64,000 nt of DNA from Pseudomonadota bacterium (GCA_038142205.1 JAYQJO010000001.1:1205415-1269414), one strand, 5' to 3'; numbered from the stretch's first letter, positions 4,234-58,170 are shown. The notes: generated by a model not told the origin, from the sequence alone. Translations and numbers: made by a program.

Positions 4234-5530
4234 TTAATTTATTGATATAGATAGTAACTGTAAAGCTATCATTGCAAAAACCATTATCTTCATAGCATAA
4301 GGAAAATTCCAACGGAGTATATCCATTGGTTTAACAAAATAACGACTCTGCATCGCTAAATGCATACCAGAAAACGGACTCGCCCCCAAACCAATTCCCC
4401 ATGCGAATAAAAAGACCATAGCAAGTAATTCAGGCGATGGATTTAGCGGCTCCAACCAGAATCCTAATATTCCGATAAAAACGATCGGATGAACACCAAT
4501 CACTGCAAATAAAATCATTATCAACAGGCATAAAGCAGCTTCATTTCCATGAAATTGCATAAAAGGTACGACGAAATTTGAATGGTTGAAAAATTCACTA
4601 ATACCAACCGCTAATAATCCAGCACTTAGAAATAAACTAATTTCTCCCACCATTTCCGGTAATCGATAAATAATATGTCCCCCGAAAGAGCAGATGTTCT
4701 TTTTCATGCCATTACGTATAAACAGGATAATTAAAGTTACTACTGGTGCCAAAATCGTTATTGACATCAAAGTACCCATGTCTGGAAATAATACACGGCA
4801 GATTAATACCAGGATTAAAAGCATTACAGGTATTAACAGAGATTCAAAATGAATTGGATAACCTTCAAATTTTTCCTGATGGGATTTTATATCTTGTAAA
4901 GTAATCAAATGTGCAATCAGGGCGACTGGTAAACCGACCATCAAAAGCACACCTATGCTTGCACCTGGAGAATAAGTCAATGCAGCTGCCATAGCAGCAA
5001 AAAATGGTGACCAAAATGCAGCTGTTGAAAAGGCTCTAGATAATACTATGAATTGTGTTTTTCCAAGTGAGTGTTTTTGTGTCAGTCTGTCAGCAACAAT
5101 CATAATTGCAGATAAGTTAAGAACTGAACTAAATAGATGCGTACCAAACAAGGTTCTTCTTAAAGCTCGATTGCCATAAGGTAGTTGTTCATTTTCTAAT
5201 GTATTAGTTTGCGTGACCAATCTTAAAAAACTAACACTGATAAGCAGTGCGATTAGATTTTGATTACTAGTCAGAGCTAGCGATGATTCAAAACTTCCTG
5301 TATCAAACCAGACGTGGACCAAAAAACTGATTCCCAGAGTAACTAACACAATACTTTGGATCAACTGAATTACTGACAAAAGCCTGATTAATAAAAAACA
5401 ACCTAACCAAGCCAGGACGCCGCTAAGCCATGTAGGTGATGAAGATATAATTTCCCTTGCTGTAGAACTAATAAGCGAAAGAAAAAAGCACGCCTGCTAC
5501 TTTGGTTAAAATTTTATTTTCATTAAACAT
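4234..5530 (-). CDS. Polytopic membrane transporter (family not recognised), frameshifted near its 5' end in an A6 run at 5487-5492
   Basis: Track ORF 4234..5379 is highly hydrophobic with about 12 TM segments. A hydrophobic in-frame extension continues upstream to ATG 5530 (MFNENKILTKVAGVL...) once one base is adjusted in the homopolymer. Confidence 0.5.
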
Positions 5531-5532
5531 TA

Positions 5533-6477
5533 TTACTGCAGGTTTTTTAATAAGGTATATATAGTGCGCGTATAAGGAGCATCTTTACCTAAGGTTTCGC
5601 AATTATTAATAACAACGCCACATATTGCATCTAATTCAAGTGTCCTGCCTTTTTCTCTATCGATGAGCATTGACGGTTTAATCGCATCAAAGTCATAAAT
5701 GAGTTGAAACATTTCTTGAGCATCCGTCTCTTTTAGATCGGAACCATCAATCTGTGACGCCAAGGTTGTTTCATTCATCATGTGCTTCATTAACATTGCA
5801 TATTCTTCATGATGCGATAAATATTTCGTATCTTTTTGTATCAAAGCCGACAATGGATTAGTGCCGTTATTGATCATCAGTTTTCGCCAGAGTTCTTTGC
5901 GTATGTCATCTGATTCTTTTGTTGGTATTCCTGCCTGATTAAACATCTCAACAGTTTTAGAAACAAACTTTATACGATCTGGATCTGCGTCAACATTATG
6001 TGGCCATGCTCCCATGATGATCTGTGCAATCCCGACAGCAGTTACATTAGCCGGTTTAATAACATCAGCACCAATACGAACGGCAAGTCCCCCAATGATT
6101 TTTGATTCATTAAGATGGTCACTAAAAACTTGTTCATTACCCATGCCATTTTGTAATGAAAGAATATACGGTGAACCGGATTTTGTATTAATCCATTCTT
6201 TCAATACATTAGCTATTTCAAAAGTTGATGTCGTTTTAATACATATCAACAAAAGATCGAAGTCCGAGGACTTATGTTTCACAATAAGGTCATCTAAAGA
6301 ACATGCTGAGACTTTTTGTTTAAAACTAAAGTCTGGATGGGTGACAGATAATCCATCTGCCTGCATTGCAGTTAAATGTTCGCCACGGGCAACAAAGGTA
6401 ACCTCATGTCTAGCATTGACGAGCTTTGCTCCGTAATAGCACCCTATCCCCCCAGCTCCAATTACGGCAATACGCAT
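5533..6477 (-). CDS. 2-dehydropantoate 2-reductase family (PanE/ApbA-like NAD(P)H oxidoreductase)
   Basis: 314 aa with N-terminal Rossmann fold MRIAVIGAGGIGCYYGAKL and PanE-like architecture. Confidence 0.65.
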   Translation of the reverse strand: MRIAVIGAGGIGCYYGAKLVNARHEVTFVARGEHLTAMQADGLSVTHPDFSFKQKVSACSLDDLIVKHKSSDFDLLLICIKTTSTFEIANVLKEWINTKSGSPYILSLQNGMGNEQVFSDHLNESKIIGGLAVRIGADVIKPANVTAVGIAQIIMGAWPHNVDADPDRIKFVSKTVEMFNQAGIPTKESDDIRKELWRKLMINNGTNPLSALIQKDTKYLSHHEEYAMLMKHMMNETTLASQIDGSDLKETDAQEMFQLIYDFDAIKPSMLIDREKGRTLELDAICGVVINNCETLGKDAPYTRTIYTLLKNLQ

Positions 6478-6490
6478 TGTTATATATCAA

Positions 6491-7341: not shown

Positions 7342-8328
7342 TTAATAAAACCGGTCATAATGTATTTGTTCAAAAGGCACTTTATAATCCATCATCAACA
7401 TTCTTGTCGTAGCATCCGTCATGGGCGGGGGGCCACAGAAATAAAACTCATGTTCTGACAATGATTCACCTAATTGTTTCGCGACTAATTCATGGATAAA
7501 GCAACATGCTCCACCCCATATACCTTCTTTATTCAAATCGGGATCAGAAATTGCGTTAAAACAAATTAGTCTTGTATTCAGTATCTTTTCATTTGCAACC
7601 AATTCAGGCGTACAAATATCATCAGGTCCACGACCACCATAAAATAGATATATTTTTCTATCGTTTAATCTAGCATCACTTGCAGCAGCCTTTGCAATTG
7701 ACATGATGGGAGATAAACCTGAACCACCGCCTATAAGAACGATATCGCGGGGTATTTCGGGTTTTAAAAAAGCAAGCCCATAAGGGCCGTCTAGATGAAT
7801 TTTTGTACCGATTACACAATCATCGAATAAATAATTTGTGGCCTTTCCCCCTGGCATTTTTTTGATAATAAAATTCCATAGCCCATCATCATTAGGCAGG
7901 TTAGACATGGAATAACCTCGTGAGCCAGTTATTCCAGTAAAGTCAAGTAATGCAAATTGGCCTGGTAAAAAATGAGCCGGATGTTCTGTACGAAAACAGA
8001 ATTCCTGCATGTCATCAGTAAGTTTATTAATCTGTACTAATTCAGCCTCAAGACGGTTTGGTTTATGTTCTGGAGTTGAGTGAGAATCAAGCCTTACTTT
8101 AATTGTGCAATCCTTTTTTGGAACACATTGGCAACCCAACATCTTACCTTTACGAATATCTCTTGCAGAACGGCCCGGAGCATCTTCCCAAAGATTATCT
8201 ATCTCTCCGTCTATCAGTTCGAATTTACAACTGCCACAACCACCAGAATTACATTCGTAGGGGAAAACCAATGCCTGCACGTAATGCAGACCGAAGTAGC
8301 GTGTCACCGTCTTCACACTGATACTCAA
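7342..8328 (-). CDS. tmoF: NADH:ferredoxin oxidoreductase of the monooxygenase (TmoF-like; N-terminal plant-type 2Fe-2S plus FAD/NAD-binding FNR domain)
   Basis: 328 aa with a CxxGxCGxC-like cluster near the N-terminus, RGYS FAD motif, GGSGLSP NAD motif and C-terminal CGPPPM. Confidence 0.75.
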   Translation of the reverse strand: MSISVKTVTRYFGLHYVQALVFPYECNSGGCGSCKFELIDGEIDNLWEDAPGRSARDIRKGKMLGCQCVPKKDCTIKVRLDSHSTPEHKPNRLEAELVQINKLTDDMQEFCFRTEHPAHFLPGQFALLDFTGITGSRGYSMSNLPNDDGLWNFIIKKMPGGKATNYLFDDCVIGTKIHLDGPYGLAFLKPEIPRDIVLIGGGSGLSPIMSIAKAAASDARLNDRKIYLFYGGRGPDDICTPELVANEKILNTRLICFNAISDPDLNKEGIWGGACCFIHELVAKQLGESLSEHEFYFCGPPPMTDATTRMLMMDYKVPFEQIHYDRFY

Positions 8329-10253: not shown

Positions 10254-10272
10254 GTTTTATCTCTTTTCCTTA

Positions 10273-10531
10273 TCATTCATCAGCAAAAATAATGTCGATT
10301 GTTTCAGTTGGCTCTAACCCTGAATCAGCGACCTTCATATCTCTCGGAAAGAAATCATCAGCACCTTGTTTCCTGACTCTTAATATCTTGTCAGGTTGTG
10401 GTGCAACTCTACGACCAATCGAAATGCGCTGCTGCTGCAGCAACTTCATCCATGGTGTTTTCTGTATCGACTGGCACAAGTTGAATCACAAAGTCATGTT
10501 CAAAATTTGAAAGTAATGGAAATGCAGCCAT
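10273..10531 (-). CDS. tmoB: Toluene-4-monooxygenase gamma subunit (TmoB), frameshifted by one base at A3 run 10426-10428
   Basis: Two frames together recapitulate TmoB: MAAFPLLSNFEHDFVIQLVPVDTENTMDEVAAAAAH in one frame, then ISIGRRVAPQPDKILRVRKQ...FPRDMKVADSGLEPTETIDIIF in the other. An AGGAGA ribosome-binding site precedes ATG at 10531. Confidence 0.75.
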
Positions 10532-10558: not shown

Positions 10559-12060
10559 TTAACCGGCTTTTTTATGCGCCATTTCTTTATAAATGTTTGC
10601 CCATTCCAAACCATAGGCATCATCACCAATCTCACCCGGCGCCAGACTCATGTACTTCAGCGCTCCACTGAGATCCATGGGTTCCATCATCCCCGCCAGG
10701 AAGCGATCGATAAAACTCAGATGATCCGCATAGCGTTCTGGTTCCTGTTCAAAACACCAGCGATCCGGTTCAGAACCAAAATGATATAAACGATCTTTAT
10801 ACTTGAGAGGATAATCTTTGACATTCCAGCCATTACCTGGTGAACCCACAATGGGTATATTCGACATATTGCATATTGCAGGTAGAGTTTCCGGCAAAGT
10901 AAGCTCAACTTTATCATTGACCAAGTTATCGATAATGACATCCCAACACTTGCCAAATGTATCGTTCCAACCAGGATATTTTTCTTCCAGCCATTCTCGT
11001 TCATCCGGGTTTACACCGGCACGAGGATTCCACCAAACCGTAGGGCGCCAATACCAAACACCCATATGCATACCATGGTGAGTTTCATCGAGATCTCGTA
11101 AAAACTGATCCCAATACCAGGGTTTATCCAGGCCAAGATCGAGAATACTGCGTTCAAACTGCCCGACTATCCATTCTTCCATAAACTCTTTAAAAGACTG
11201 GCTTCGATGTTCAAGGGGTGTGTAGTAGTCCATCATGGGTCCCGTCAACACAGAAAACAATTTCCATGAACGCCAAAAAGCAATATCTATCAATCTCTGG
11301 GCATCGGCTTTTTTACCTTTTTCCACCAACAACTTGACCATTGGGCCACCCTGCTGAGCGTGACGTGATTCATCGGTCTGTATACTTGAGATTAAACTTG
11401 AAAATGTATGGTCACCGGCCTCCGAAGCATCAGCGGCTAAGCCCAGAAACTGCATATTGGTAAAACCTGTTTCAAAAGCAAACGTCAGCATAATACCCAT
11501 ACTGATCGCATCGCGGCTATGAATGATATCTTCAAAAAAATGCCTGCCAGCCAAAGCTGCCCATTCATTAGTATGTAATGCTTTTTGTGCCCAATCCCAT
11601 TTTCTATCCAAATTGCAGTTGGCATGTGGAAAAAACAATTGAAGTTGAGCATGACGAGTTTCATCCATCATGCCAAACGTGGCCATGTTACGGTTACCCG
11701 GCGCCTTGGAAAACGCGCCATTCTACCTTCGCCAACAATTGCGCCATATTCAGCCAAAGCTAAAGCACCATAATGTGCTTGTAGAATACTGATCCAGCCT
11801 GGATCAGCACGATCAAGAAATTTATCACGCGCTAATGCCGCTTTTACTGAATAAGCACCCGCATCTTTTTCACGTTGGGTCTCAACGTATTCAGGATAAG
11901 TCACTTTGTAAGGCTCATCATAGGTTTCCCAATCCTCAATTGAAATTCCGCGATGACCTGACATTTCCTCAGGAAATAATTCATCCTCAGTGACATATTT
12001 CGGCGTCCAGTTGGTTGCCCTTAATAAATCATACCATTCTGTTCTTTCGATCATGGCCAT
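10559..12060 (-). CDS. tmoA: Toluene-4-monooxygenase hydroxylase alpha subunit (TmoA), split into track ORFs 11668..12060 and 10559..11686 by a one-base error in A4 run 11710-11713
   Basis: The N-terminal ORF (MAMIERTEWYDLLRATNWTPKYVTEDELFPE...GEGRMARF) and the C-terminal ORF (MATFGMMDETRHAQLQLFFPH...) are colinear with TmoA. Diiron ligand motifs E..H are present. The frames rejoin if observed cgttttcc is read as cgtttttcc. Confidence 0.85.
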
Positions 12061-12131: not shown

Positions 12132-12322
12132 TTACTTACCAAGTTCCTTGGCCGATTTTCCAGCGATACCAAAATGCGATTTTGGTACTTCATTTAAAAT
12201 GACTCGAATACTTTCCCTGGGTGCGCCCAAACTTTCCTCTATTGCATCAGTGATGCTTGCAATTAAGTTTGCTTTTTCTCATCGTCTCTGCCTTCCATGA
12301 TGGTGATATTTGCTATGGGCAT
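12132..12322 (-). CDS. 4-oxalocrotonate tautomerase (DmpI/XylH family, ~63 aa), frameshifted at 12265-12266; not in the ORF track
   Basis: Reverse strand reads MPIANITIMEGRDDEKKQT then, in the other frame, LIASITDAIEESLGAPRESIRVILNEVPKSHFGIAGKSAKELGK. The N-terminal Pro1 after Met and the overall pattern match 4-OT. Confidence 0.7.
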
Positions 12323-12349: not shown

Positions 12350-13416
12350 TTAAATATTTTTAAATAACGGGCTTTTCGGTTTTTCATCTTTCGAGGCATT
12401 AGTATAGAAATGCTCCATGAATAAATGCTTTTCAAACAGACGTCCTTGCATCAAGGTCGTTATACAAGCATCTATCATTGGGGGTGGCCCACACATGTAG
12501 GCTTTATTGCCTTCAAACTTTCCATCATAAATAGAATTGGCAACTTCATGCACCATGCCTCGTTCACCTTGCCAGTCACTGTCTTCCGGTTCTTCTGATA
12601 AAGCGGGTATATATCTGAAATTTTCATGTTCTTCTGCTAATGCTTCGAACACTTCCCGGTAATACAACTCCTGTTGATTTCTTGCACCATAAATCAAAGT
12701 GATCTCTCTTTGCTCACCTTTTTCAAACTGATCCAGAATCATCGATTTTGGACTGGACAGACCTGATCCTCCTGCCAAAAATAACATCGGCTCAGGTGCA
12801 GAGTTACGCACAAAGAAACGACCATAAGGTCCTGAAAAATTTAATTCATCACCCACTTTTAATTGTTCATGGATATACGTTGTACCTGCACCACCCTGTA
12901 CCAGTGAAATATTCAGTTCGACAATTGAATTCTCAGAAGGAGAATTAGCAATAGAAAATGCACGAGCTGGTCCTGCAATTCCTGGAATTTCCAGATTAAT
13001 ATAATGACCGGCTTGAAATTCAATGGAGTCATTTTCTATCTCGAGAAAAATACCTTTGATTCTTGATTTAAATCGGTGATCTCAATCACCTTCGCTTTAA
13101 AATCTCTTACCTGATGTGATTCCGCATCAGGGTCTTCTTCGACGTCTGCTTCAATCACCAAGTCAGACGTTGGTGTGGCACAGCACGCCAAACATTTACC
13201 TTCACCTTTTTCCATATCCATCAAGGCAAATGGCGAAGCCTCGCCATGTTCAATATCACCTTCAAGCACATCGACTTTACAAGTGGCACATAAACCATGG
13301 CCACATGCATACGGTAGATAAATTCCAGCTCTTAATGAAGCATCAAGAATGGTTTGACCTTCTTCGACCTCAATAATCTCGCCCAAAGGTTCAATTTCAA
13401 CCTGATAAGTCAACAT
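12350..13416 (-). CDS. dmpP: Phenol hydroxylase reductase component (DmpP-like; 2Fe-2S ferredoxin plus FNR domains), frameshifted at A5 run 13046-13050
   Basis: N-terminal ORF 13036..13416 (ferredoxin domain CGHGLCATCKV) and C-terminal ORF 12350..12856 (GPYGRFFVR, AGGSGLSSP, CGPPPM) are colinear with DmpP. The middle segment reads correctly in a third frame (IEFQAGHYINLEIPG...). Confidence 0.85.
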
Positions 13417-13776
13417 TTAATTTCCATAGCCTTTCACACCATTTAAATCAGGTGTAATAAATCTTAATAATGATTTATGTCCAAAACCGTTGTCTTTTAA
13501 ACTGGCGCTTGTATCTGGTGTGAAATCTTCATCATCAAGAATCCAGTTGACGTTATCCCACTTTACTTTTTCATATTCTGGATGAGCCGAAAAAATACTC
13601 GGGATCACTTCCTCCAGCAAAGCACCAAAAGGCATCTCTGGTGGTAATGGAAAGGCTAATGCTGCAGTAAATAGATTGTGATTATCCCAATGGATATAGA
13701 CCAACTGATTTCCATGAAAATTTTCTACAGCATCTTTGTTAATATCGACGTAATCGCCTAAGGGGTTAATTGCCAT
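13417..13776 (-). CDS. dmpO: Phenol hydroxylase component P4 (DmpO, gamma subunit)
   Basis: 119 aa with VENFHG, PLPPEMPFG, HPEYEKVKWD motifs as recalled from DmpO. Confidence 0.85.
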   Translation of the reverse strand: MAINPLGDYVDINKDAVENFHGNQLVYIHWDNHNLFTAALAFPLPPEMPFGALLEEVIPSIFSAHPEYEKVKWDNVNWILDDEDFTPDTSASLKDNGFGHKSLLRFITPDLNGVKGYGN

Positions 13777-18397: not shown

Positions 18398-20096
18398 TCA
18401 ACCTTGTTCAATATCCAGTTTCTTTAAACGATAGGCCAGTTGCGGTCGGGTGATATTTAATGTCCTCGCAGCTGCGCTTAAATTACCTTTGGCATTTTTT
18501 ATTGCTGTTTTTAGAATTTCTGTCTCAAGCTTTTCAAATCCAGGAAAATTATTATTATTCTGTAGCATAGTTTCTGCATATTCATGTAAATCAATAGAGC
18601 TAGCATTATTTTCAACCAAACCTTTCATTTCTCCCATTTTACGTCTGTCTATGCTTCCATCAAATGTACTAAAAATAAGGTTCGACAATTTAATTTTAGT
18701 TCCTTTTTTAGTCAGAATAATTCCTCGCTCAATAACATTTTCAAACTCTCTGACATTACCTGGCCACGAATAGGCTGCCAGTGCCTCTATCGCATCATCC
18801 TCAATACCTGGAATTACTTTATTGTATTTAATTCCTATTTTATTAATGAAATGATCAATTAATATCGGAATATCTTCTTTATGGTCTCGTAATGGCGGAA
18901 TGATGACCGGATAAACATTTAATCGAAAAAAAAGGTCTTTCCTAAAGCGTTCTTCTTTAACAGCCGTTTCCAGATCATTGTTGGTTGCGGCGACGATGCG
19001 CACATCAATACGCCTTGACCGTGTATCACCCACACGTTCTATTTCATGATTTTGTAAAACCCTTAATAGTTTCGCTTGTGCACTTTCTGAAAGCTCTGCG
19101 ATTTCATCAAGAAACAAAGTCCCCCCATGGGCACGTTCGAATTTACCAGGCCGAGATTTTTGCGCGCCGGTAAATGCCCCCTTCTCCACACCAAATAATT
19201 CAGACTCTATTAATTCTTCTGGAATCGCAGCGCAATTTATCGCAACAAAAGGCGCTTTTTTTCGCTCACTTGTGTCATGAATTTTACGTGCAAACAAATC
19301 TTTCCCCACTCCGGTTTCACCTATAAGTAGTATGGTGACCTGACTCTCTGCGACGTGATCCAACATTTTATGAACATCTTGTAATTTTTTAGAATCACCT
19401 ATGATATTGCTGATTTCATATCCCTGTTCTACATTTAATCGTAATTTTTCGAATTGATTTTGTAGTTGCAACATTTGATCTGCAAAATGTTCTGGTTTGA
19501 AGTATCGAATATGTCCGATATCAGAACCCCAATCTTCAATCGGCTTGCCAATGATCCGGCATGTTTTAACTCCCGTCCCGGCACATTCAATTTCCTTAAA
19601 AGGATCATATCGTCCATGAATGCACTTGCATAACCACTGGCATAACCTATTTGTAACCAACAAACGGGATCCTGACTAATACCAAATAGGTCGAAGTACA
19701 TTTTGGTTTCAAAAGAATTATTCCATAAATACTCCGCATAAAATTCTCCCTTAGCCACGTTCATTTCTAATTTTATTTCAGTGACTTCAACGCCGGTTTC
19801 AAATTGATGAAGTAGAGGGCCAATCTTAATGCATCAGTATCAGAGGCTTCTGGTCGTAATTCATGTGCTAGAACGGCATCCTTTTCTCCGGCAGCATAAC
19901 CCAACCGTGTGATTAATCCTCGTGTCCGATCTAATCCAAGATTTTCGATTAATTCTTTGCGTAAAGAAGCCATTGCCTGAATATTCAGCAATATCATCCG
20001 TTCACTCCCGAGGGTGATATCGCCTTCTCCTCCTGGCAGCGTAAATATTGAGGAGACTTCTTTAGACTCAGACTTAGTTGGATTTAATTTTTTCAT
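18398..20096 (-). CDS. XylR/DmpR-family sigma-54-dependent transcriptional activator (N-terminal aromatic-effector-sensing domain, AAA+ sigma-54 interaction domain, C-terminal HTH), split into three track ORFs by two one-base errors (CC at 19614-19615; TT at 19826-19827)
   Basis: ORF 19773..20096 resembles the XylR N-terminal domain (GEGDITLGSERMILLNIQAMASLR). ORF 19435..19764 continues it (GEFYAEYLW...DPVCWLQIGYASGYASAFM). ORF 18398..19663 carries the Cys-rich linker, GETGVGKDLFARKIH, GAFTGA and C-terminal HTH. Confidence 0.8.
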
Positions 20097-22743: not shown

Positions 22744-25114
22744 ATGAATAACTATGTAATTTGGTTTGAAAAACTGGGAATGAACGATGTCGAAATCGTT
22801 GGTGGTAAAAATGCCTCTTTAGGTGAAATGATTTCTAATCTTGCCGACTCTGGTGTCATGGTACCAGGAGGATATGCAACAACAGCTGATGCATATCGTG
22901 AATTTCTTAAACACGAAGGACTTTCAGATCGTATTAATAAAAACCTTTCTGATCTTGATGTCGACAATATTGAACACCTTACCGCCGCCGGTAAACAAAT
23001 CAGACAATGGATCATAGATGCCCCATTTCCGCCACAACTTGAAAAAGAGATCAGTGAAGGTTATGTAGAATTGGAAAAGAGAGCAGGTAAAAATGTATCT
23101 GTTGCTGTTCGCTCTTCAGCAACAGCAGAAGATCTCCCTGATGCCTCTTTTGCCGGTCAACAGGAAACCTTTCTCAATATTCGCGGCATTGATGACATTT
23201 TGTTTAGAGTAAAAGAAGTGTTTGCCTCACTTTATAATGATCGCGCTATCGCTTATCGCGTTCATCAGGGTTTCGAACATGAAGTGGTTGCATTATCCGC
23301 AGGCATACAACAAATGGTACGCAGCGATTTGGGCTCAAGTGGTGTCATGTTTACTTTGGATACTGAATCAGGTTTTGATGATGTTGTTTTTATTACCTCA
23401 TCATTTGGTCTGGGTGAGTGCGTTGTTCAAGGTTCAGTTAATCCTGATGAATTCTACGCCTACAAACCTGCACTTGTAGCAGGTAAGCAATCTATATTAC
23501 TGAGAAATATATATGGGTAGTAAGGCAGAGAAAATGATCTTTGATGAGTCAGGAGATAACCCCACGATAATTATCAAGACTTCAGAGTCTGAACGTACAA
23601 ACTTCTCCCTCAATGATGAAGACATAGAAGAGTTGGCACGCTATGCCTTAACAATAGAAAAACATTACGGCCGTCCGATGGATATCGAATGGGGTAAAGA
23701 TGGCGAAAATGGCAAACTCTATATCTTGCAAGCCAGACCTGAAACCGTCAAAAGCCGCACAGCAGGCAAAAGCATAGAACGTTATATCATGAATGAACGC
23801 TCTGATATTTTAGTAACAGGAAGAAGTATTGGCCAACGCATAGGTAGCGGACCTGTAAAAATTATTTCAGATATAAAATATATGGATGAAGTAAAAGAGG
23901 GAGATGTGCTGGTAACGGATATGACTGATCCTGATTGGGAACCCATCATGAAACGCGCTTCGGCAATTGTCACCAATCGTGGTGGTCGTACCTGTCATGC
24001 AGCAATTATTGCCAGAGAACTCGGTATCCCTGCTGTAGTTGGAACGTCCAACGGAACAGAAAAACTTGCTGATATCGATGAAGTTACCGTTTCATGTTCT
24101 GAAGGCGATACAGGTTTTATCTATGAAGGCATATTGCCGTTTGAATTAAAAAATATTCAACTCGATTCTATGCCGGAAATTGATTTAAAGGTGATGATGA
24201 ATGTGGGTAATCCCGATCGCGCTTTTGACTTTGCCTCTTATCCAAACCACGGCGTCGGTTTGGCACGACTCGAATTTATTATTAACAGAATGATCGGCGT
24301 ACATCCCAAAGCCTTGATCAACATTGATACTATGCCAAACAACATCAAGACAACTATTCAAAAAAGAATTTCAGGTTATCGTACACCCGTTGATTTTTTT
24401 ATCGAAAAATTAACAGAAGGTATTGCAACATTAGGGGCTGCCTTTGCACCTAACCCTGTCATTGTTCGCATGTCTGATTTTAAATCTAATGAATATTACA
24501 ATCTCATTGGCGGAGATCAGTTTGAACCAAAAGAAGAAAATCCGATGCTTGGCTTTCGTGGTGCGTCTCGATATATTTCAGAATCATTCAGAGACTGTTT
24601 CGAAATGGAATGTAAGGCGTTTGTGAAAGTCCGTAATGATATGGGACTCAGCAATGTTCAATTAATGGTACCATTTGTACGAACGGTAGACGAAGCAAAA
24701 CAAGTCACCGAACTGCTAAAAGATAATGGTCTGGAACGAGGTAAAGATGGCCTTAAGGTGATTATGATGTGTGAATTACCTTCAAATGCATTATTAGCAA
24801 AAGATTTCCTTGAATATTTTGATGGGTTCTCTATAGGTTCCAATGATTTAACACAATTAACATTGGGATTGGATCGAGACTCAGGTCTGGTTGCAGATAA
24901 ATTTGATGAAAGAAATCCAGCAGTAAAAGCAATGCTACAGATGTCTATCAAAGCCTGTTTGGAAGCTAAAAAATATATTGGCATTTGTGGTCAAGGTCCA
25001 TCGGATCATCCTGATCTGGCGCAATGGTTAATGGAACAAGGCATCGAAAGTGTTTCTCTTAATCCAGACACGGTCATTGAAACATGGTTATCATTAGCAG
25101 GGGAATCTATTTAA
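22744..25114 (+). CDS. ppsA: Phosphoenolpyruvate synthase (PpsA), frameshifted in an A/AT low-complexity stretch at 23495-23510
   Basis: ORFs 22744..23520 and 23513..25114 are colinear with PpsA: ATP-grasp N-domain, phosphohistidine domain ...[24 protein letters not shown], and PEP-utilizing C domain. The junction ...[13 protein letters not shown] maps to the linker. Confidence 0.85.
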
Positions 25115-27036: not shown

Positions 27037-27956
27037 TTACGTTACAACCTGTAGGAATCTATCATTAAGCTCTCTGCTATGATAAAAAATTGCCTGACCA
27101 AGATGATCGGGAGTCCATGTTAAAACGGGACTATCTGGATATCGATAACTGTCTTCACAGAAAACTTCATTACGATTACCAGAAGGATCAAAGAAGTAAA
27201 TCGTTTGTCCCCGAGTTAAGCCATGTCGTGTTGGTCCAATATCCAGTGGGATATCTTTCATCGAAATGATGTCTGCCGCACGTAATACATTTTCCCATGT
27301 GTTCAACATAAATGAAGCATGATGCATTTTATTTTTTCTTCATGACGGATAAATGCAACGTCATGGGCCTTATGTGAACAACTTAGAAATGCAGCAATCT
27401 GTAATTCACCATCGACAACCTGTTCAGCCACATCAAATTCCAGAGCTTCTGTAAAAAGTTTAACGGTACCATCTATATCATCACCATAGAGTAAACAATG
27501 GTCAAAACGCACTGCTTGCATTCCTTGCAAACCCTCTGGCCAGGGTCCAGGATTTGTTGTTGGTAATCCATTGCCATACACCTCTTTTTCTGCATACAGT
27601 TCAAAAGTATGACCCGTTGGCGAATCAAATCGGACACGTTCACCACAGTGGTTTAATTCACCAGCAGCAATACGTTCAACATTACAACCAAATTTCTTAA
27701 TGTTATCCTCAAGTCGCAGTAACGATGCTTCGTTGTCTACCTTGAACGCCATGTGATCCATGCCCGGGCTATCGTTCTTTTGTAATACCACCGAAAACCA
27801 ATCATGTTCATCCCAGCATTTCAAATAAACACGCCCTTGATCGTCTCTATCCGTTTCAATTAAACCCATATTCTCAGAATAATGTTTTACCGATTCATCT
27901 AAATCCAACACATTAATCATTACATGTCCTGGTCTCATTACGCCTGTTATTGCCAT
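27037..27956 (-). CDS. Catechol 2,3-dioxygenase (extradiol, XylE/DmpB type), frameshifted in the T4/T6 runs at 27327-27338
   Basis: ORFs 27303..27956 and 27037..27327 are colinear with XylE: GVMRPGHV...DDQGRVYLK...AHDVAFI then [22 protein letters not shown]...[22 protein letters not shown]. The junction lies in poly-A on the coding strand. Confidence 0.85.
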
Positions 27957-39064: not shown

Positions 39065-40011
39065 TTACATTCTTACTATGTCGTTATTATTAGTAAACCA
39101 TTCATAATATTTTTCCAATCCTTCGCGAAGTTTAAATTTGGCTGTCCACCCAATCTTTGTAAGTTTGCTAACATCTAGTACTTTTCTAGGCATACCGTCA
39201 GGTTTAGTGTTATCAAAAACTAATTCACCTTGATAACCAATACATTCTTTTACTCTGTAAGCAAAATCTTTTATTGAAATATCCGTCCCAGTGCCAATAT
39301 TTATATGAGAATCATCTGAATAATGTTTCATTAAAAATACTAAAGCATCCGCCAAATCATCCACATATAGGAATTCACGTTTAGGTTTCCCCGAACCCCA
39401 CACAATACATTCTTTTTCATCATTAATTTTTGCATTATGAAATCGTGATAATAATGCCGCTGGCACATGCGAATTTTCAGGATGAAAATTATCACCGGGC
39501 CCAAATAAGTTTGTCGGCATTGCGGAAATGAAATCGACACCATATTGCCGTCTATATGATTGACATAGCTTAATACCTGCTATTTTGGCTATGGCATACC
39601 ATTCGTTAGTAGGTTCAAGTTCGCCTGTTAGTAATGCATCCTCCGTGACAGGTTGTGTCGCATTTCTTGGATAGATACAAGAAGCTCCTAAAAACAACAG
39701 CTTTTCTACATCATTAATAATGCATTATGTATAAGATTAGTTTCGATCATCAAATTGTCATAAAGAAACTCAGCGGGATAATGACTATTCGCATATATTC
39801 CGCCTACCTTTGCAGCAGCGATAATTACCACATCTGGTTTATTTTTCTTTAACCATTTTGATACAGAATGACCATCTCTTAAATCCAGTTTATCTTTAGT
39901 TACAGTTAGAATTTCACAATCTTCACTATTTAATCTGTTAATAATTGCACTTCCCACCATTCCATTATGACCTGCAATCCATACGCGCTTGTTTTTTAAT
40001 TCATAAATCAT
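39065..40011 (-). CDS. fcl: GDP-L-fucose synthase (Fcl; GDP-4-keto-6-deoxy-D-mannose 3,5-epimerase-4-reductase), frameshifted at ~39714-39719
   Basis: ORFs 39706..40011 ([24 protein letters not shown]) and 39065..39697 ([55 protein letters not shown]) are colinear with Fcl. Confidence 0.8.
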
Positions 40012-43788: not shown

Positions 43789-45186
43789 CTAGTTCTTTTT
43801 TCTATCAGAATCAGTTTCACTTTTAATTGCTTCAATAAAACCTTCTGATGCTGCGGAACCTTCTTTTATTCCGTCTAACTTTGCGTAATCAAACTCTGTG
43901 TTAATCGTTGGCATGACTTTTTTTATAGACCAGGAACCTAGCATATCAGGGTGGTAATAGGAGTTCTTAACTATTGGTAATAAATCTACCAATCTATCAA
44001 TAATAGCGTCCAAAGAAGCTTTCTTATCCGGAAAAATATCTATGAGCGCCTGTATCATTTTTTTCTCATAGTCCGAATACATAAACACAGGACCTTTATC
44101 ACCTAAGTCTGATATTAATTGGTCTGCCAGTTTCTCTAACGGAGGCATATCTTCTAATTCTAGAAACTCAACATGATCAAGCGAATCATAATCGCTGTTA
44201 TGTTGAATATGACATGAATACTGTATTGGCACTGCTAGATAGGGTCGAAACCCAAGCCAAATTGGTATAGCCGGGTTGATAGATTCAAAATCTAAATAAT
44301 ATCTGGGGTATGGCAGGCTATTCAATTCATTCTTAGCCTGTGCATTAACCTCTGGCTTTTCCAATAGTGTAGTCGCATGAATGCGGTGATGCGTCTCACT
44401 AGTAATGTCATCAGACGCCACATCACGAATGTCCTTGATGCCTGCATTGGCCCATTCGGCAAGTTTTTTCTTATCGCCGCCTAAACCTGTTAATGGATAT
44501 TTCGTATCACTCGGCCAACATTGTTTTGTAAATCGGCAATCATAAGGACTTGAACAATGAGAACCGACACTAACATCTAACTTTGTCTCAGCTGAGTACT
44601 TTGAGTCAAATACCATTTTTCCGACTGAGGGTCGTAATTCTTTGGCACGTTCCGTTAAGTCTACCTCTTGCAAAAAGCCTTCATAGCAACCTTCTTTTTC
44701 ATATACAAACTGATTATTAATATGAGCTAAAAAAACACCAGTTAATTCAACGCCACATCTAGACATAACCCAGTATTGAATTGCACATTCTAATTCATGA
44801 TGAAATTCCTTACTGGTTGTTGCTTTTACTTCAATTAATTTATAACCCTCTTTATATGGCTGCAAAATATCAGCGCGGACTAGTATGCCTTCGAACTCAA
44901 AAGCTGCATCATAAATAACTTCATCGTTATTATCTTCTATAATTTCTTTTGTCTCTTCTATAGCATCCTCTAATCCATTGTCATATCCTACTTCTATATT
45001 AATATCACTTTTATAAAGTTCTTTCGCAATATCACCAACCGCACGCCCTGACGCAAATAAAGATTCGACTTGGGGATCATAATCGGCTAATTCGGGCTCG
45101 TTAATTTCAAAATAGAGCATTTTTGGGCATTGCCATACAGAAATCAGGTTAGATTTCGAGAGATACGGATCTTCTTCAGTTGACAT
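43789..45186 (-). CDS. DUF2779-family protein (Cas4/RecB-like PD-(D/E)XK nuclease fold with Fe-S cysteine cluster)
   Basis: 465 aa with an N-terminal Cys (WQCP) plus a C-x5-C-x5-C cluster (HCSSPYDCRFTKQC), the Cas4-like arrangement. I do not recognise any characterised enzyme family. Confidence 0.55.
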   Translation of the reverse strand: MSTEEDPYLSKSNLISVWQCPKMLYFEINEPELADYDPQVESLFASGRAVGDIAKELYKSDINIEVGYDNGLEDAIEETKEIIEDNNDEVIYDAAFEFEGILVRADILQPYKEGYKLIEVKATTSKEFHHELECAIQYWVMSRCGVELTGVFLAHINNQFVYEKEGCYEGFLQEVDLTERAKELRPSVGKMVFDSKYSAETKLDVSVGSHCSSPYDCRFTKQCWPSDTKYPLTGLGGDKKKLAEWANAGIKDIRDVASDDITSETHHRIHATTLLEKPEVNAQAKNELNSLPYPRYYLDFESINPAIPIWLGFRPYLAVPIQYSCHIQHNSDYDSLDHVEFLELEDMPPLEKLADQLISDLGDKGPVFMYSDYEKKMIQALIDIFPDKKASLDAIIDRLVDLLPIVKNSYYHPDMLGSWSIKKVMPTINTEFDYAKLDGIKEGSAASEGFIEAIKSETDSDRKKN

Positions 45187-46690: not shown

Positions 46691-48429
46691 TTATTTCTTA
46701 ACTTTAGCTTCTATTTCTTTCAAATTAATTACAGGGTGTTTTGCGAGTAAAATTTTACTATGCGATGTTTGTTCTCGGCACTCATCATCGTAAAATAATT
46801 CTTCATACATTTTCTCGCCTGGACGCAAGCCGGAATATTCAATATTTATATCGCTATATGGAAGCAAGCCGGAAAGTTTAATCATTTGTTCAGCAAGATA
46901 ATTAATTTTTACCGGCATTCCCATATCTAAAACATAAATTTCACTACCGCTCCCCATAGCATTTGCTTGCAATATTAACTGGCATGCCTCAGGTATAGTC
47001 ATGAAATAACGTGTTATATCTTTATGAGTAACAGTTACAGGCCCACCTTTTCTTATTTGTTCTTTAAACAATGGTACAACACTACCTTCTGAGTCTAAAA
47101 CATTACCAAAACGTACTGTTATAAAATGCGTACTACTGCTTTCACTAATAATTTCCGTATATATTTCAGCTATACGCTTTGTGGCTCCTAAAATATTAGT
47201 TGGTTTAACTGCTTTATCAGTAGAAATTAAAACAAAACTTTCACAACTGTTTTCGTGAGCCGCTATAGCTATATTCTTTGTTCCTAATATATTATTTCTA
47301 ACAGCTTCACGAGGTTGTCTTTCTAGAATCGGAACATGCTTATATGCCGCCGCATGAAAAATAATATCTGGCTGATACTGTTTAATAGTTTTATCGACTA
47401 AAGTTTTATCGCACAAATCACCCAGTATAAATTCGCATTTTACATTTAATTGTGACAAAGACTGTTCAGTCCGATACAAGTTAAATTCATTTATTTCAAA
47501 TACTATTAATAAAGATGGTTCTAATGAAGCAATTTGTTTACATAGCTCAGAACCAATAGACCCCCTCCTCCAGTTACTAAAATCACTTTATTACTAGTAC
47601 TAGTTTGTATCTCCTGCCAATCTAATTCAACCTTTTCTCTGCCCAATAAATCCTCAATAGATACCTCACGAAGTTTAGAAAGAGCTTCTTGACTTCCAAC
47701 CATATCTTGAATACTTGGTAGTGTTCGAATTGGCAGACCCGTTCCCTCACATATATTCACTATTTTCTGCATTTGAATACTTGTTGCAGATGGAATCGCT
47801 ATTATTATTAGATTTATATCAAATTGCTGTATAAATTCTTGTACATGTTTAATCTCTCCATAAATTTTTATTCCATGAATTTGCGAACCTTTTAGTGAAA
47901 CATTATCATCTAATATAGCTATGGGCATATAACTACCTTCTCTTAAGCTTTCCCTAATTAGTAATTCTGCAGCTCGCCCAGCACCAATTATTAATACACG
48001 TTTATTATCTATCATTGAATTCATAGATAATCTGCGATCTTTCCATAGGCGATAACCTAATCTAGGAGCGCCAAGTAAAAATATTAGAAATACCGGATAT
48101 AAAATTAGTATAGATCTAGGAACACCATCCAATCGATTAATGTAAAATAAAAAGATAGCTATTATTATTGTCCCTACGAAAGAAGCGCGAAATATATTCC
48201 ATAGATCGGGCAAACTCGCAAAACGCCATAACCCGCGATAAAAACCAAATAATTTTGAAATACCGCCCTGAACAAGAATTATTAGCGGGATTGTCCATAG
48301 CATTGGGCTCCAAACATCGATTAACTGATAATCAAAGTTAAATCTTGCCATCCAGGCTAATAACCATGCGAACACGATCATTATTAAATCGTGAATAATT
48401 GCTAAGTGACGGTTATTTATACGGGGCAT
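46691..48429 (-). CDS. Membrane-anchored UDP-sugar 4,6-dehydratase / polysaccharide biosynthesis protein (WbpM/CapD/PglF family), frameshifted at C5 run 47561-47565
   Basis: ORF 47521..48429 gives the N-terminal TM region plus the start of a Rossmann motif (VILVTGGGG). One extra G restores GSIGSELCKQIASLEP... into ORF 46691..47479 (HAAAYKHVP etc.). Confidence 0.8.
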
Positions 48430-50350: not shown

Positions 50351-50922
50351 TCCCTTTGAATTTTGGCATAGTATTATCACTTGAATTATTCACACCGCTT
50401 CCTTTTACCACATTTAAAACAGTCAATATTAAAATTTTAACATCAAATAAAAGGTTATGATTATTAACATAATACACATCCAATCTTAATCGTTCGCCCC
50501 AAGATGTATCATTTCTTCCATTAACCTGAGCCCAACCCGTTATCCCGGGCTTAACATCATGTCGACGACTTTGTTCTTTATTATATAACTCTAAATACTC
50601 AATCAATAATGGTCTCGGGCCTACAATACTCATTTCTCCTTTGATCACATTATAGAGCTGAGGAAATTCATCAATACTAAATTTACGTATAAATTGACCT
50701 AGTGGAGTCATTCTTTCCATATCAGGTAGTAGCTCACCATTGGCATCTCTGAGATCTTTCATAGTTCTAAACTTATATAATTTAAAAGGCTTTGCATGCT
50801 TCCCTGGTCTTTTTGAACAAACAAGATTGGAGAGCCGAGAGACACTAAGATTAATAAAGCAGCAACAACCAAAACAGGAAAGAGAAGTATCAATAGTGAT
50901 ACAGATAAAACCAGATCAAATA
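50331..50922 (-). CDS. Undecaprenyl-phosphate sugar phosphotransferase (PglC/WbaP C-terminal domain family; initiating transferase), frameshifted at T5 run 50810-50814
   Basis: The track ORF holds the catalytic domain (PRPLLIEYLELYNKEQ, VKPGITGWAQV). The upstream frame encodes the PglC-type N-terminus VKRIFDLVLSVSLLILLFPVLVVAALLILVSLGSPILFVQK from a GTG start. Confidence 0.75.
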
Positions 50923-50928: not shown

Positions 50929-52047
50929 TCACAGCTTCATTACTTTTATTATTTCATTATTAATCAGTCTGACATCAAACTTACTTTCTACAATTTCACG
51001 GCTAACCTTACCCATAGTTGAAGCTAAATTATTTGATGAAATGAAGTTTTCCATTGCAATAACTAACTCATCAACATTTTTGACTGTTATCAAAAACCCG
51101 TTCTTTTTATCAATAACTGTTTCACGGCAGCCCGGAACATCTGTTGTAATAATAGCTCGTCCCATTGACATTGCTTCCAAAACTGATCTTGGCATTCCTT
51201 CACGATAAGAGGGCAATACAACTACAGATGCATCTCTTACATAGGGCCTTACATCATCCGTCTCTCCTAAATAATCAATCATATTTTTATCCTTTAATTT
51301 TTTCAAATCATCAAAAGATATTGCAGACGGGTTATCATCGAGAGGCCCTAGAACCTTAAACTCAATCTTAGGGTACTTTTTTTTTCAATCTTCTTGCTGC
51401 TTCTATATACTCCATTATTCCCTTATCTTTTAATAGCCTGGCGACCATCAAAAACACTAGATCTCGTTGTGGTAATGGCTGAATCTGAAAAAAGTCTGTA
51501 TCAACACCAGAGCCATTAGTGATCGAGTAGCTCGACTCTTTCTTAATAATTTTATTACTAATAAAAACATCCCTATCATCTTTATTTTGAAAAAAACATT
51601 CGTATTATTTTTCAATGCCAGCTTATACATTCTTGGCACTATTAGTTTTACTACTTTTTGTCTAAATGTTCTTGCTTTAAGAAAAGTACTACCTAAGCCT
51701 GTTATTAATGCATATTGACGCTTCACTCTACAAATTTTTGCTGCAATCAATCCATATACAACTGGTTTAATTGTATAACCGACAACAATATCTGGCTTAA
51801 TTTTTAAAATTAATTTAATAAACCAAATAATTAAGACTAAATCCTTAAATGGATTAATCCCCGTCCGCTCTAATGGTAATGAGTAGTAATGACTTCCCCT
51901 ATTATTAAACCACTCACTTACCTGCCTATCTTTCCCACCTGCGCATGCGAACACATCATGCTTTCGATTCAATAATTCATCTATCAGATTACCTCTAAAA
52001 TTGATGAGTGAACGAGGCCAACTTCCAATAATTAATATTCTTGACAC
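50929..52047 (-). CDS. Glycosyltransferase family 1/4 (GT-B fold), carrying two homopolymer frameshifts (T9 at 51377-51385; A7 at 51590-51596)
   Basis: ORF 51457..52047 is the N-domain. A third frame gives GSGVDTDFFQIQPLPQRDLVFLMVARLLKDKGIMEYIEAARRLKKK. ORF 50929..51306 holds the EGMPRSVLEAMSMGRAIITTDVPG C-domain motif. Confidence 0.7.
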
Positions 52048-52137: not shown

Positions 52138-52865
52138 TTAAGTTGGTCTGCATACTAATATGAATGACTGAGCAAATTTTTCTGGTATTTTTAAAAACCT
52201 GCATATTTTTTCAATGGGGATTATTAGCTTTGATGCTAATAAACCTAGCCATGGACCTGTCCTAGGATAAAAACTATAAAACATTACTTTTTCTATTTTA
52301 AAACCAGATTCTTTCAACTCAGTTTCAATGCAGCTTAAACTCATCGTGTTTGCTATATTTTTATTCTTTATTTTGTTTCTAATTCTATAAACCATGCCAA
52401 GCGGACTATCAGAATTAACATGTACATTAATCACCAAATACCCATTTTTGTTGATCATATTATACATTTCATTCAAAACATCGAGCCTTAACTGTTTTTG
52501 AGCATTTAAGAAAAACGAAATGCAGTTATTACATCAAATTTTTCATTCAAACTATTTGAAGTAATGTCTTGCTTTAGAAGCTTAGAATTGACGCAGTTAG
52601 CCTTCGAGATCTCAAGCATACTATCAGAAACATCAACTCCACACGTATCATCAAAATAACTTTCAGCTAATTTTATAATTCGACCAGTACCACAAGCAAA
52701 ATCTAAATATTTCACTTTATTTTCGCTTGAAATTTTTTCAAAGATATTTTCTAAAAGAGGCTTTTCTAATAAAGACCACTGTGAACCATAAAATCCTACC
52801 TTATAAGTTTCTGAGTAGAATTTTCCATACCCATCACTAGAGTGGCTTTCTCGATAATCTTGCAT
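52138..52865 (-). CDS. Class I SAM-dependent methyltransferase, frameshifted at A5 run 52511-52515
   Basis: N-terminal ORF has motif I LDFACGTGR. One added base joins ...AFRFFLNAQKQLRLDVLNEMYNMINKNGYLVI to the C-terminal ORF. Confidence 0.7.
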
Positions 52866-54885: not shown

Positions 54886-55003
54886 ATTTTATACTCTATA
54901 CATCATTTTATTTTCCAATAGACATTTTCTAATTAATAAGAAAAAACATGCAGACTGAATCAATGCAACCACCAACTCAATAATTACTGCACCTACAATT
55001 CCA

Positions 55004-56166
55004 TTATCTGGAACCACCATAAAACAGCCGATAGAAAGCAACAGCAAAGAGAAAAAAACTTACAATCAATTGTGCTTTAAATTGCCTAATCGCGGTTAAC
55101 ACATATACCATGTATAAAACCATATTATTTGCAGCAGCAGCAAACATTATTAATAAAAGCTTGTCTGAATGGCCTGACAATTTGTCTCCATAGATTACTG
55201 AAATAATAAAATCGCCAAAAAAATAGATGAAAAACATTCCTAGCGTACCAATTACCATGCCTGTTATTGCAAGCCTATATAACAACCCCATAAATTCTTT
55301 ACTGTTTTTTTTCATGATAACACTTTGATAATTTAGATAAATAAGGTGTTCCAAATGAAGCTGCAATAAGTGAAGAAGCTACAGAAAAATATACAAGTGC
55401 AGCATAAATACCCAATGTACTTGTGCCATTATAAAAAGCTATAAAATATTTTGAAATATTTGGTAATAAAGAAGAAAAGAAAGCAACTCCACACAGGGGT
55501 AATGCTAAAAAGAAAATTTCTTTTATACTCTCAAGACGACCTTTGAAAAAAAAAATTCAGTACCGAAGGAGATGATAACTCTGTTTTTAATAATACTGCA
55601 TTCAAATCATATAATAATAATATAATCACATGACTAACAATCAACCCCAACGCAATATGAATTAAATTCCCACCTTTATAGATAATTAAAATTGAAATGA
55701 TTACTGAAACAATTGATTTCAATATTAACGATAACCCAACATTGAATAAATCATCGTTCTTTTGAAAAAAACCATAAATAATATCACTTAATGATTCAAA
55801 ACACTTTGCGCCCGCGATTATCAGCAAAACCCAACGCATATGAGCATTATCAATAAAAACAAATGAATAACTTATAATTATAAACAGGGCTGTCAAAGAA
55901 GTGATAAATCGCAAACTATAATAATCCGTGTTGGCATGCTCTGCTTTAGCATCAGATGTTATCACAAGCCTCAAACGCATATTTGTTAACATAAATACAG
56001 GGGCAGAAATAGCAAAAGCTAGTGCGTATATACCTACTGAATCTAAACCTAATACATTTGTAATTAATATTACTATTAACCATGAACTTGCCGCATAGCC
56101 AATATTACCAGCTGTATACCAAAGTGAATTTTTTAGTATTGAATTACTTAATAAACTTCTTAACAT
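55004..56166 (-). CDS. wzx: Wzx-type O-antigen/polysaccharide flippase (MOP/PST family), with at least two frameshifts in A10 (55546-55555) and T8 (55305-55312) runs
   Basis: Hydrophobic N-terminal ORF 55531..56166 and C-terminal ORF 55004..55366. A third frame across 55367..55530 gives membrane-protein-like sequence (LALPLCGVAFFSSLLPNISKYFIAFYNGTSTLGIYAALVYF...). Confidence 0.6.
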
Positions 56167-56218
56167 AAATATTAATACAACTATATTTTAATGCCGCATT
56201 TTCATATAGAAAAAATAT

Positions 56219-58170
56219 TTAACTTATCCACTTTTCATACCAAGATTGAAACATAATAACATTCCATAATTGATGATGACAATTTCTTACGCCAGACTGA
56301 TGATCTTCCCATGCTTTCTTTATTACATTGCTGTCTAACACTCCTTGTTCTTTAATTTTTTCATAATCTAATAAATCCATTGCCCATTTTTTTAAAGGCC
56401 CTCTCAACCATTTATCTAATGGAATACCAAAGCCCATTTTGGGTCGATTTACCAACTCTTCAGGGACATGCTTATACAATACCTGTCTCAATAAATACTT
56501 GCCTTGATTATTTTGTATTTTATATTTGATTGGAATCTGCCAAGCAAAATCAATCAAGTTGTGATTTAAATAGGGAACCCTACTTTCTAAACTAACAGCC
56601 ATCGAAGCTCTGTCTACTTTAACAAGTACGTCATCGGATAAATATTTAACAGTATCGTTATATAACATTTTTTTGGTTGCTGTTAAATTCTTCATGACTT
56701 CATCTTCTACACGGTTATTAACAGTATTATGATTAATCACAATTTTAGAATTAAACCACGTTGAAGTAAGCGATCTATAGAGTTCATCATCACTTTCCAT
56801 ATTTAGTACGCGACCAATTTTATGAATTTTTTCGCCGGCTAATCGCAATTGATAATTTACTGGAATATATTTTGATAAAGTCTTATAAATTGTATCCCAC
56901 TTTTCTGGTGAAACACCTAACAGTATATTCCCAAGAAACATACGTATGCTAGAAGGTAGTTTATTAGCTCTTTCACTAATATTATAGCTATATACATGTC
57001 GGTTGTAGCCGCAAAATAATTCATCAGCCCCATCACCAGATAACGCTACTTTAACTTTTGTTTTAGCTAATTTTGAAACCAAATAAGTAGGGATTTGCGA
57101 AGAATCTGCAAAAGGTTCATCATATATATCGGCTAATAAAGGAATGGTTGCCATTGCGTCGGCAGATGACACTATCATTTCTGTATGATCTGTCTTTAGG
57201 TGCTCAGCTACAGCACGTGCTTGTATCGACTCATCATATCCAACTTCAGAAAAACCCATAGAAAATGTTTTAATAGGGTTTACTGATTGTTTTTGCATCA
57301 AAGCTACAACCAACGATGAATCAATACCTCCAGATAAAAATGCACCTATCGGAACATCAGAAACCATACATGATTTAACTGCACTTTTAAGCCGTATTTC
57401 CAATTCATTAACAAGTTCATTTTCATTGAGGCCAGTGATAGGATTTTGTTCTCCATGTTCAACTACATCTTTAAGGGACCAATATGATTTAACATCAGGT
57501 AGCTTACCTACTGAATTTAAATTAACCTTGCAAAATGAGCCAGACTCTAATTTACGGAAACCTTTGAAAATACAGAATGGAGAAGGGACATAAGAATATT
57601 GAAAAAATCCTGATAGCGATTCAATGTCTAACTCTGGCTTGAAGTCAGGCCAAGCTTTGAAAGCTTTGAGCTCAGATGCAAACATAAAAACACCTTTATA
57701 CCAGCCATAGTACAATGGCTTCTCACCAAGCCTATCCCTACATAAATATAACGTTTTATTTTTTTATCCCATACAGCTATCGCAAACATTCCTATTGTTT
57801 TTTTTATAGTTTTTTCAATCCCCCATTTTGATACACTTTCAATCAATACCTTGGTATCTGAATGGCCATCAAATTCAACACCCTCTGCTGATAATTGCTT
57901 ACGCAGCTCTAAAAAGTTATAGATTTCTCCGTTAAACACCATTACATAGCGACCACATGTTGAGTGAATTGGTTGTCCGCCAGTTTCACTAAGGTCAATA
58001 ATAGAAAGCCTTCTGTGCCCCATTGCAATACTATTATTTTCTCCGCACCATATCCCTATTGCATCTGGTCCACGGTGAGTTAAAGATTTAGCTGATTCTC
58101 TAACAATAGAGTCGACGGGCCGTTCTGGCATTGAGTTTGGGTGGATTAAAAAGCCCGTTAGACCGCACAT
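56219..58170 (-). CDS. Asparagine synthase (glutamine-hydrolysing)-family amidotransferase (AsnB/WbpS-like), frameshifted at T7 run 57759-57765
   Basis: ORF 57628..58170 has the N-terminal Cys2 GATase domain (MCGLTGF...). ORF 56219..57715 has the synthetase PP-loop SGGIDSS. The junction ...FAIAVWDKK/NKTLYLCRDRLGEKPLYYGW is restored by one added base. Confidence 0.8.

Follow-up and report, generated by a model that had tools for sequence, protein, structure and literature searches.

Genomes of recently host-restricted bacteria in early pseudogenisation, of the Sodalis glossinidius or Mycobacterium leprae type, carry nonsense mutations, larger deletions and insertion sequence insertions in addition to frameshifts, and their lesions are fixed in the population. 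Broken genes are also reported from long-read assemblies. R9.4 nanopore genomes polished with Racon/Medaka have been reported at accuracies of Q23-Q38, a range that spans the value of about Q31 found here, with deletion-dominated homopolymer errors and hundreds to thousands of false pseudogenes (PMC8011154; PMC12007338). We analysed a stretch of 64,000 nucleotides (nt) from a Pseudomonadota bacterium (GCA_038142205.1 JAYQJO010000001.1:1205415-1269414), hereafter the window, in which many genes appear to be split. Its G+C content is 38%, and the minus strand carries most of its genes. Pairs or triplets of same-strand reading frames, overlapping by 14-145 nt, recur in it. An earlier interpretation made from the sequence alone (the sequence-only reading) had attributed them to 21 single-base frameshifts caused by sequencing error. 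We found 23 frame breaks, spanning 5.4-57.8 kb. Very probably, 22 of them are consensus errors in the deposited assembly and not mutations, and the remaining one, in the phosphoenolpyruvate (PEP) synthase gene ppsA, is genuine. The lesions are private to this assembly, concentrated in mononucleotide runs, biased towards deletion, unfiltered by selection and missing from a contig that shares the window's haplotype.

Intact genes in independent DNA

When the intact DmpN-like subunit (13789-15318) was used for an exact-protein look-up, it led to a 45-kb Logan contig, SRR11524960_894, and to short contigs from SRR15322238/41/42 and JGI 3300010430. The coverage was extended by further look-ups, and the independent assemblies used were SRR11524960 and SRR15322231-42. 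In total, 45.8 kb of the window had an independent counterpart, at 99.0-100% identity. The Logan contig (loci L001 and L006) matched positions 3797-44802 at 99.0-99.9% identity and ended near 46.2 kb, at the start of the O-antigen cluster; contigs of five other runs were 99.8-100% identical to the window. Exact-protein look-ups with 58249-59613, 54052-54885, 3331-3828 and P0001 returned no record, so that independent DNA is missing for 1-3.8 kb, 50.35-52.3 kb and 54.1-64 kb. An exact search of genome contigs and metagenome contigs with a 37-mer of an O-antigen glycosyltransferase gene gave no match either; the source genome is therefore not among the GTDB species representatives, and the O-antigen cluster is absent from the JGI metagenomes searched. 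A text search with the Sequence Read Archive and JGI accessions found no relevant paper.

All the genes named by the sequence-only reading are split into abutting or overlapping reading frames in the window. At 15 breaks the gene is intact in the independent DNA, and 12 of these breaks were on the earlier list; seven other listed breaks are supported at the protein level. Single open reading frames (ORFs) were present on the independent contigs for the XylR-like regulator (566 aa), DmpP (354 aa), 4-OT (63 aa), TmoA (500 aa), TmoB (86 aa), the TmoF-like reductase (340 aa), a 432-aa protein that had been called a transporter, catechol 2,3-dioxygenase (306 aa), DUF1302 (670 aa), the DUF1329 paralogue (468 aa), the fcl-like epimerase (315 aa), DUF2779 (494 aa) and the methyltransferase. 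The claim that ORF-based annotation under-calls the genes of this contig was borne out, and 4-OT, at 63 aa, lies below any ORF threshold. The total of 21 events needed correction: the list itself sums to 20, and the 23 breaks found here include additional ones at 8260-8263, 43801 and 46697.

A base-by-base comparison of the window with the independent contigs gave 20 indel events, of which 15 break a gene in the window and four lie in its small intergenic fraction; the remaining one, at 25595 (six bases in the reference, five in the window), leaves the window gene intact. The window was the shorter sequence in 16 events and the longer in four. It was longer at 8263 (four bases where the reference has three) and at three intergenic sites (28369-73, 32160 and 38887); at intergenic position 8429, a run of seven was reduced to five. 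Most lesions changed 1-2 nt, as opposed to strictly one base as had been proposed. Several events removed two bases, including those at 5482-5487 (eight to six) and in tmoB at 10424 (CACCAT to CATT), and the ppsA lesion is an insertion of 4 nt. The six runs that had been offered as examples all exist at their positions, but the sites given for dmpP and DUF1302 were misplaced. The runs A5 at 13046-13050 and T8 at 31349-31356 showed no difference between window and reference, and the true sites are 13065 and 31299.

Dependence on run length

Twelve of the 20 indel events were in runs of at least five bases, which make up 4.1% of bases (P about 2e-12), and 15 were in runs of at least three, which make up 21% (P about 4e-7). 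The indel rate per run was about 0.2% at length 3-4, 2% at 5, 3.8% at 6 and 11% at 7 or more. The enrichment in homopolymers is therefore real. The events at 10424, 13065, 31299 and 46697 lie outside runs of at least three bases. The overall error density of about 0.7-0.8 per kb corresponds to an accuracy of about Q31.

NCBI records place the wzx fragment of the window itself on a contig of 2,664,267 bp, and a source contig of 2.66 Mb suggests a long-read assembly. The source is a chromosome-scale contig of an uncultured Thiotrichaceae-like gammaproteobacterium, most likely assembled from noisy long reads of the nanopore type without polishing by accurate reads. A consensus of this kind miscounts mononucleotide runs, usually losing one base and, in long runs, two, and also retains scattered substitution errors. 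A miscount within a gene shifts its frame, and gene callers then output two or three fragments.

Table 1. Positions of the frame breaks and of one substitution cluster in the window. Run lengths are given as reference > window; a slash marks the junction of two reading frames.
Feature	Position	Strand	Observation
432-aa protein ('transporter'), N-terminus	5482..5487	-	A6 (T6 on the coding strand), reference 8; -2 nt
TmoF-like reductase, N-terminal 2Fe-2S part	8260..8263	-	G4; reference and both sister species 3; +1 nt; new to the list
tmoB	10420..10428 (10424)	-	CACCAT>CATT, net -2 nt; non-homopolymer
tmoA	11710..11713	-	A4; reference and sister species 5
4-OT (tautomerase, 63 aa)	12273..12277	-	run 6>5
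dmpP	13064..13066 (13065)	-	GG>G
Cluster of five substitutions in 52 bp	13413..13464	-	all transversions; opposed by SRR11524960 and SRR15322242
XylR-like regulator, break 1	19594..19597	-	run 5>4
XylR-like regulator, break 2	19826..19827	-	run 3>2
ppsA	23507..23514	+	(AT)4, (AT)2 in sister species; +4 nt insertion, real
Catechol 2,3-dioxygenase	27332..27337	-	run 7>6; intact in L006
DUF1302	31298..31300 (31299)	-	2-base run > one base
DUF1329 paralogue	36897..36900 (event at 36896)	+	G4; reference 5
Epimerase (fcl-like)	39717..39718	-	run 3>2
DUF2779, C-terminus	43796..43801	-	A7>A6; 465 vs 494 aa; two datasets oppose the window; new to the list
wbpM-like, C-terminus	46697	-	lone T between A and G deleted; non-homopolymer; new to the list
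wbpM-like	47559..47566 (run 47561-47566)	-	one base missing (G6>G5 or TT>T) in NAD-binding motif TGGGGSIGSE; protein level
pglC-like sugar transferase	50810..50814	-	run 5, expected 6 (FVQK/RPGK); protein level
GT1 gene, break 2	51377..51385	-	run of 9 (T9); +1 or -2 nt; protein level
GT1 gene, break 1	51590..51596	-	run 7, expected 8 (NVFF/QNKDD); protein level
Methyltransferase	52510..52514	-	run 6>5
wzx, break 2	55305..55312	-	run of 8 (T8); +1 or -2 nt; reading frames only
wzx, break 1	55546..55555	-	A10 run; +1 or -2 nt; protein level
asnB-like	57754..57765	-	one base missing in T4 or T7 (VWDKK.K/TLYLCRDR); protein level

Lesions private to the assembly

Judged from its substitutions, the window holds real, evolution-like strain variation together with a second class of noise-like changes. 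Between 38.9 and 44.7 kb (38899-44632), 39 substitutions (about 0.7%) separate it from SRR11524960, compared with about 0.07% elsewhere. These comprise 29 transitions and 10 transversions (26 synonymous and five non-synonymous changes) and consist largely of synonymous transitions within uvrB, DUF2779 and an aminotransferase gene, which points to real divergence between strains or to a recombined segment. Comparatively, the substitutions at 3.8-36 kb, most of which are private to the window, comprise 17 transversions and five transitions, with 11 non-synonymous and six synonymous changes. As intergenic runs are affected and these substitutions are transversion-rich and mostly non-synonymous, the lesions behave as noise that selection has not filtered. 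Contexts of the substitution errors were inspected by eye, and no shared motif, such as a methylation site, was seen around them.

Such strain diversity, and the fact that the closest relatives are all metagenome-assembled genomes (MAGs), raise the question of whether the indels are an artefact of co-existing strains collapsed into one metagenome consensus. A collapse would give mosaic single-nucleotide polymorphisms (SNPs), however, and not deletions that scale with run length. Moreover, the shortened alleles occur in none of the other datasets, and the density of lesions is equal inside and outside the diverged segment. We consider strain collapse very improbable.

Wherever a third sequence covered a private site, the window was the odd one out (9/9). 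The sites are 13413, 13415, 13427, 13447, 13464 and 15881 (against L002), 23501 (against L093), and 43801 and 44237 (against L011). At four of the five substitutions at 13413-13464, the sister species side with the other datasets, and one of the five turns the start codon of dmpP from ATG into TTG; the cluster looks like a patch of locally low consensus quality. L011, a contig from SRR15322231, carries the window allele at six natural SNPs that distinguish the window from SRR11524960. Despite this shared haplotype, it has neither the deletion at 43801 nor the transversion at 44237, so the window lesions do not mark a strain. Across the strain-specific O-antigen cluster, the contigs L007-L010 match the window exactly, except for the indel at 52514 and one SNP in L009. 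The indel is the sole difference between the window and L007 (SRR15322241), in which the methyltransferase gene is intact.

Two sister species at about 84% nucleotide identity, L012 ('Thiotrichaceae bacterium UWMA-0311', a MAG) and L018, have all genes intact, and they keep the intact state at the sites checked. They had the same state as the Logan contig at six of the seven covered coding indel sites and an equal length at the seventh, and they agreed with it at 9-10 of 15 substitution sites. Among the nine substitutions that outgroups clearly polarised as window-derived, seven were transversions.

These comparisons also bear on whether the frameshifts could be real, that is, whether a hypermutator deficient in mismatch repair, or a genome in early reductive decay, has acquired about one slipped-strand frameshift per 2-3 kb. 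Replication slippage also acts in mononucleotide runs, the ppsA break in the same window is demonstrably real, and the Logan contig has a run-length frameshift of its own at 25595. Loss of mismatch repair leads mostly to transitions, whereas 77% of the substitutions at 3.8-36 kb are transversions. Decay would leave lesions common to independent samples, but at the 15 breaks with independent DNA they are not shared, ppsA being the only shared one. The other kinds of lesion expected of pseudogenes were looked for as well: none of the 61 substitutions between the window and the independent contigs is a nonsense change, and none of the about 80 differences is an indel longer than 4 nt. Coding and intergenic runs are affected alike, the same-haplotype contig is free of the lesions, and an indel is all that separates the window from the O-antigen contigs of the SRR153222xx runs. 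If the deposited run lengths were true, the density scaled to 2.66 Mb would imply a very recent hypermutator or decaying lineage with about 1,100 slipped-strand frameshifts genome-wide. We find this highly unlikely and, in agreement with the sequence-only reading, prefer sequencing error to decay or a mutator lineage.

Breaks in the O-antigen cluster

Seven breaks in the O-antigen cluster (wbpM-like, pglC-like, GT1 twice, wzx twice and asnB) have no independent DNA and were assessed at the protein level. Pfam profile coordinates continue across five of the seven junctions, for example Glycos_transf_1 4-43 then 45-170, Polysacc_synt 1-183 then 197-273, and GATase_7 1-91 then 87-122. Across one junction CoA_binding_3 is followed by Polysacc_synt_2 from position 8, and at the first GT1 break Glycos_transf_1, from its position 4, comes immediately after a glycosyltransferase 4-like N-terminal domain. 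A three-frame reading placed every break of the cluster at a run and recovered motifs at five junctions (e.g. TGGGG/SIGSE, FVQK/RPGKHAKPFKLYKFRTM and VWDKK.K/TLYLCRDRLGEKPLYY). For the second wzx break the support comes from the reading frames, since no Pfam family matched the downstream wzx fragment. A homologue search with the N-terminal fragment of wzx returned only the fragment itself and no intact Wzx for comparison.

O-antigen genes are the classic setting of slipped-strand switches, and the longest runs of the window are located in them. A subset of the breaks may thus reflect phase variation, with long A/T runs in surface-polysaccharide genes acting as contingency tracts caught in the OFF state. 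The candidates are the T9 of the GT1 gene (51377-51385), the T8 and A10 of wzx (55305-55312 and 55546-55555) and possibly the asnB run. These tracts lie outside the independent DNA (50.35-52.3 and 54.1-58.2 kb), and their frame change is +1 or -2, unlike the usual -1. However, a -2 error explains them too, as at 5482-5487 and 8429. In the long runs that could be checked, the window was always 2 nt short of the reference, and an extra base is therefore not the sole reading of runs of 8-10. The extra base that had been proposed for wzx fits no better than the loss of two. In addition, the measured error per run is already 11% at lengths of at least seven, a contig otherwise identical to the window lacks the nearby methyltransferase break at 52514, and two breaks within one wzx are unlike the behaviour of a switch. 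Phase variation thus seems improbable to us for these tracts, although phase-variable long A/T tracts confined to wzx and GT1 are more probable than real frameshifts throughout the genome. Consensus error is the explanation that we prefer here as well.

The overlap at 50334-50389 was considered as a further frameshift and rejected: it is an ordinary gene junction between pglC and pglD, and the pglC break is the one at 50810-50814. A second asnB-like gene (61765-63687, 640 aa), with full GATase and Asn_synthase domains, is intact 4 kb from the broken one in the same polysaccharide cluster.

The genuine break in ppsA

The gene ppsA (22744-25114) is split, inside its PPDK_N domain, into two ORFs (258 and 533 aa) with an 8-nt overlap (junction 23507-23520). 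The sequence-only reading counted this break among the errors, on the argument that ppsA is a housekeeping gene, and took it for one extra base. The break is neither an error nor a single base. The additional 4 nt are unchanged in SRR11524960 and SRR15322242 and so are common to three datasets including the window. In the sister species (L012, L094 and L095-97), ppsA is intact at 788 aa and reads ...CG(C/A) AGA AAT ATG GGT AGT AAG where the window lineage reads ...CGG AGA AAT ATA TAT GGG TAG. The best 120 homologues were all full-length or truncated by contig ends. As three datasets share the 4 nt and the sister species do not have them, the ppsA lesion is real, recent and lineage-specific.

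The second ORF starts at a native methionine (MGSK...) and overlaps the stop codon of the first by 8 nt. In the true sequence, a GGAG derived from the CGG codon (CGC or CGA in relatives) lies 8 nt upstream of this ATG; in the window it is abolished by the G>T error at 23501. Taken together, the GGAG and the overlap suggest translational coupling and a possible two-piece enzyme, on the basis of a single observation. That the split gene yields a working two-piece PEP synthase by such coupling is possible but rather doubtful. Loss of function is at least as likely, because the split lies inside a domain.

Other features of the window

Tandem aromatic monooxygenase operons, one tmoABCDEF-like and one dmpKLMNOP-like, occupy 7342-16949 with the 4-OT gene between them and a XylR-type regulator at their flank. 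The synteny is kept, at 84% nucleotide identity, in MAG UWMA-0311. That the region is a known mobile catabolic plasmid was considered and rejected, as a plasmid search gave only Acinetobacter matches at 73%. The gene at 4237-5496, which encodes the 432-aa protein, is absent from the syntenic loci of the sister species L012 and L018. Its earlier label of transporter could not be verified, since the intact protein matches no Pfam family.

The frames at 20294-21147 were rejected as a frameshift because they are two separate genes (Sulf_transp and DUF6691) with the same arrangement in the Logan contig. A 354-aa frame at 535-1596 matched the DHDPS profile in its first half only (14-161 of 289); this may reflect divergence of the protein, or more undetected errors beyond the compared region.

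Weight and consequences of the probable consensus errors

Several observations weigh against consensus error as the explanation of the 22 breaks. Run lengths were compared between assembled contigs, and those used as reference derive from other samples. One of the reference contigs is itself frameshifted: at 25591-25595, the window has G5 and an intact flavodoxin_2 gene of 209 aa, as in two relatives, whereas Logan contig SRR11524960_894 has G6 (at about 19082 of L006) and a gene split into 146 and 76 aa. This difference reflects a true polymorphism in run length or a mistake in the SRR11524960 assembly, and because of it one or the other must be reckoned with on the reference side too. The seven O-antigen breaks were judged at the protein level, and four lesions lie outside runs of at least three bases. 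Finally, an excess of G>T/C>A does not belong to the textbook picture of nanopore errors, which makes the assignment of a platform tentative. We infer both the platform used and that the seven O-antigen breaks are errors.

As biology, the split state of these genes is not real, ppsA excepted. Nineteen genes of the window are affected, including two aromatic monooxygenase operons, their regulator, a meta-cleavage dioxygenase and much of the O-antigen cluster. In the 2.66-Mb genome as a whole, annotation based on ORFs will miss or break up about one gene in three. Unless the sequence is polished or frameshift-aware methods are used, any pseudogene count, completeness estimate, pangenome comparison or metabolic reconstruction derived from it would be wrong. 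Blanket repair from homologues is risky, because the genuine ppsA break should be kept.

Comparison with known systems

Genomes in early pseudogenisation resemble the window in having many genes with small frameshifts in sequence that is still recognisable. They are unlike it in that the lesions here are private to one assembly and that the other types of lesion are absent. The long mononucleotide tracts within wzx and a glycosyltransferase gene recall slipped-strand contingency loci. However, wzx has two breaks, and non-surface genes and intergenic runs show the same kind of error.

Flow-space miscalls of 454 and Ion Torrent sequencing share with the window the miscounting of runs that rises with their length. 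These platforms do not give contigs of 2.66 Mb, however, and their errors fall mostly in runs of at least 4-5 bases, whereas runs of 2-3 bases and sites outside runs are also affected here.

The residual homopolymer errors and false pseudogenes of long-read assemblies (nanopore R9-type or PacBio CLR), as described with Homopolish (PMC8011154) and Kastor (PMC12007338), were also compared with the window. Two features differ: a fifth of the window indels are in contexts of 1-2 nt, and G>T/C>A changes are overrepresented among its substitution errors, a feature that has not been described as typical of nanopore data. The resemblance extends to indels in mononucleotide runs, a deletion bias after polishing, an accuracy of about Q30, a chromosome-scale contig, and genes that are fragmented at about one per few kb and can be corrected from close homologues.

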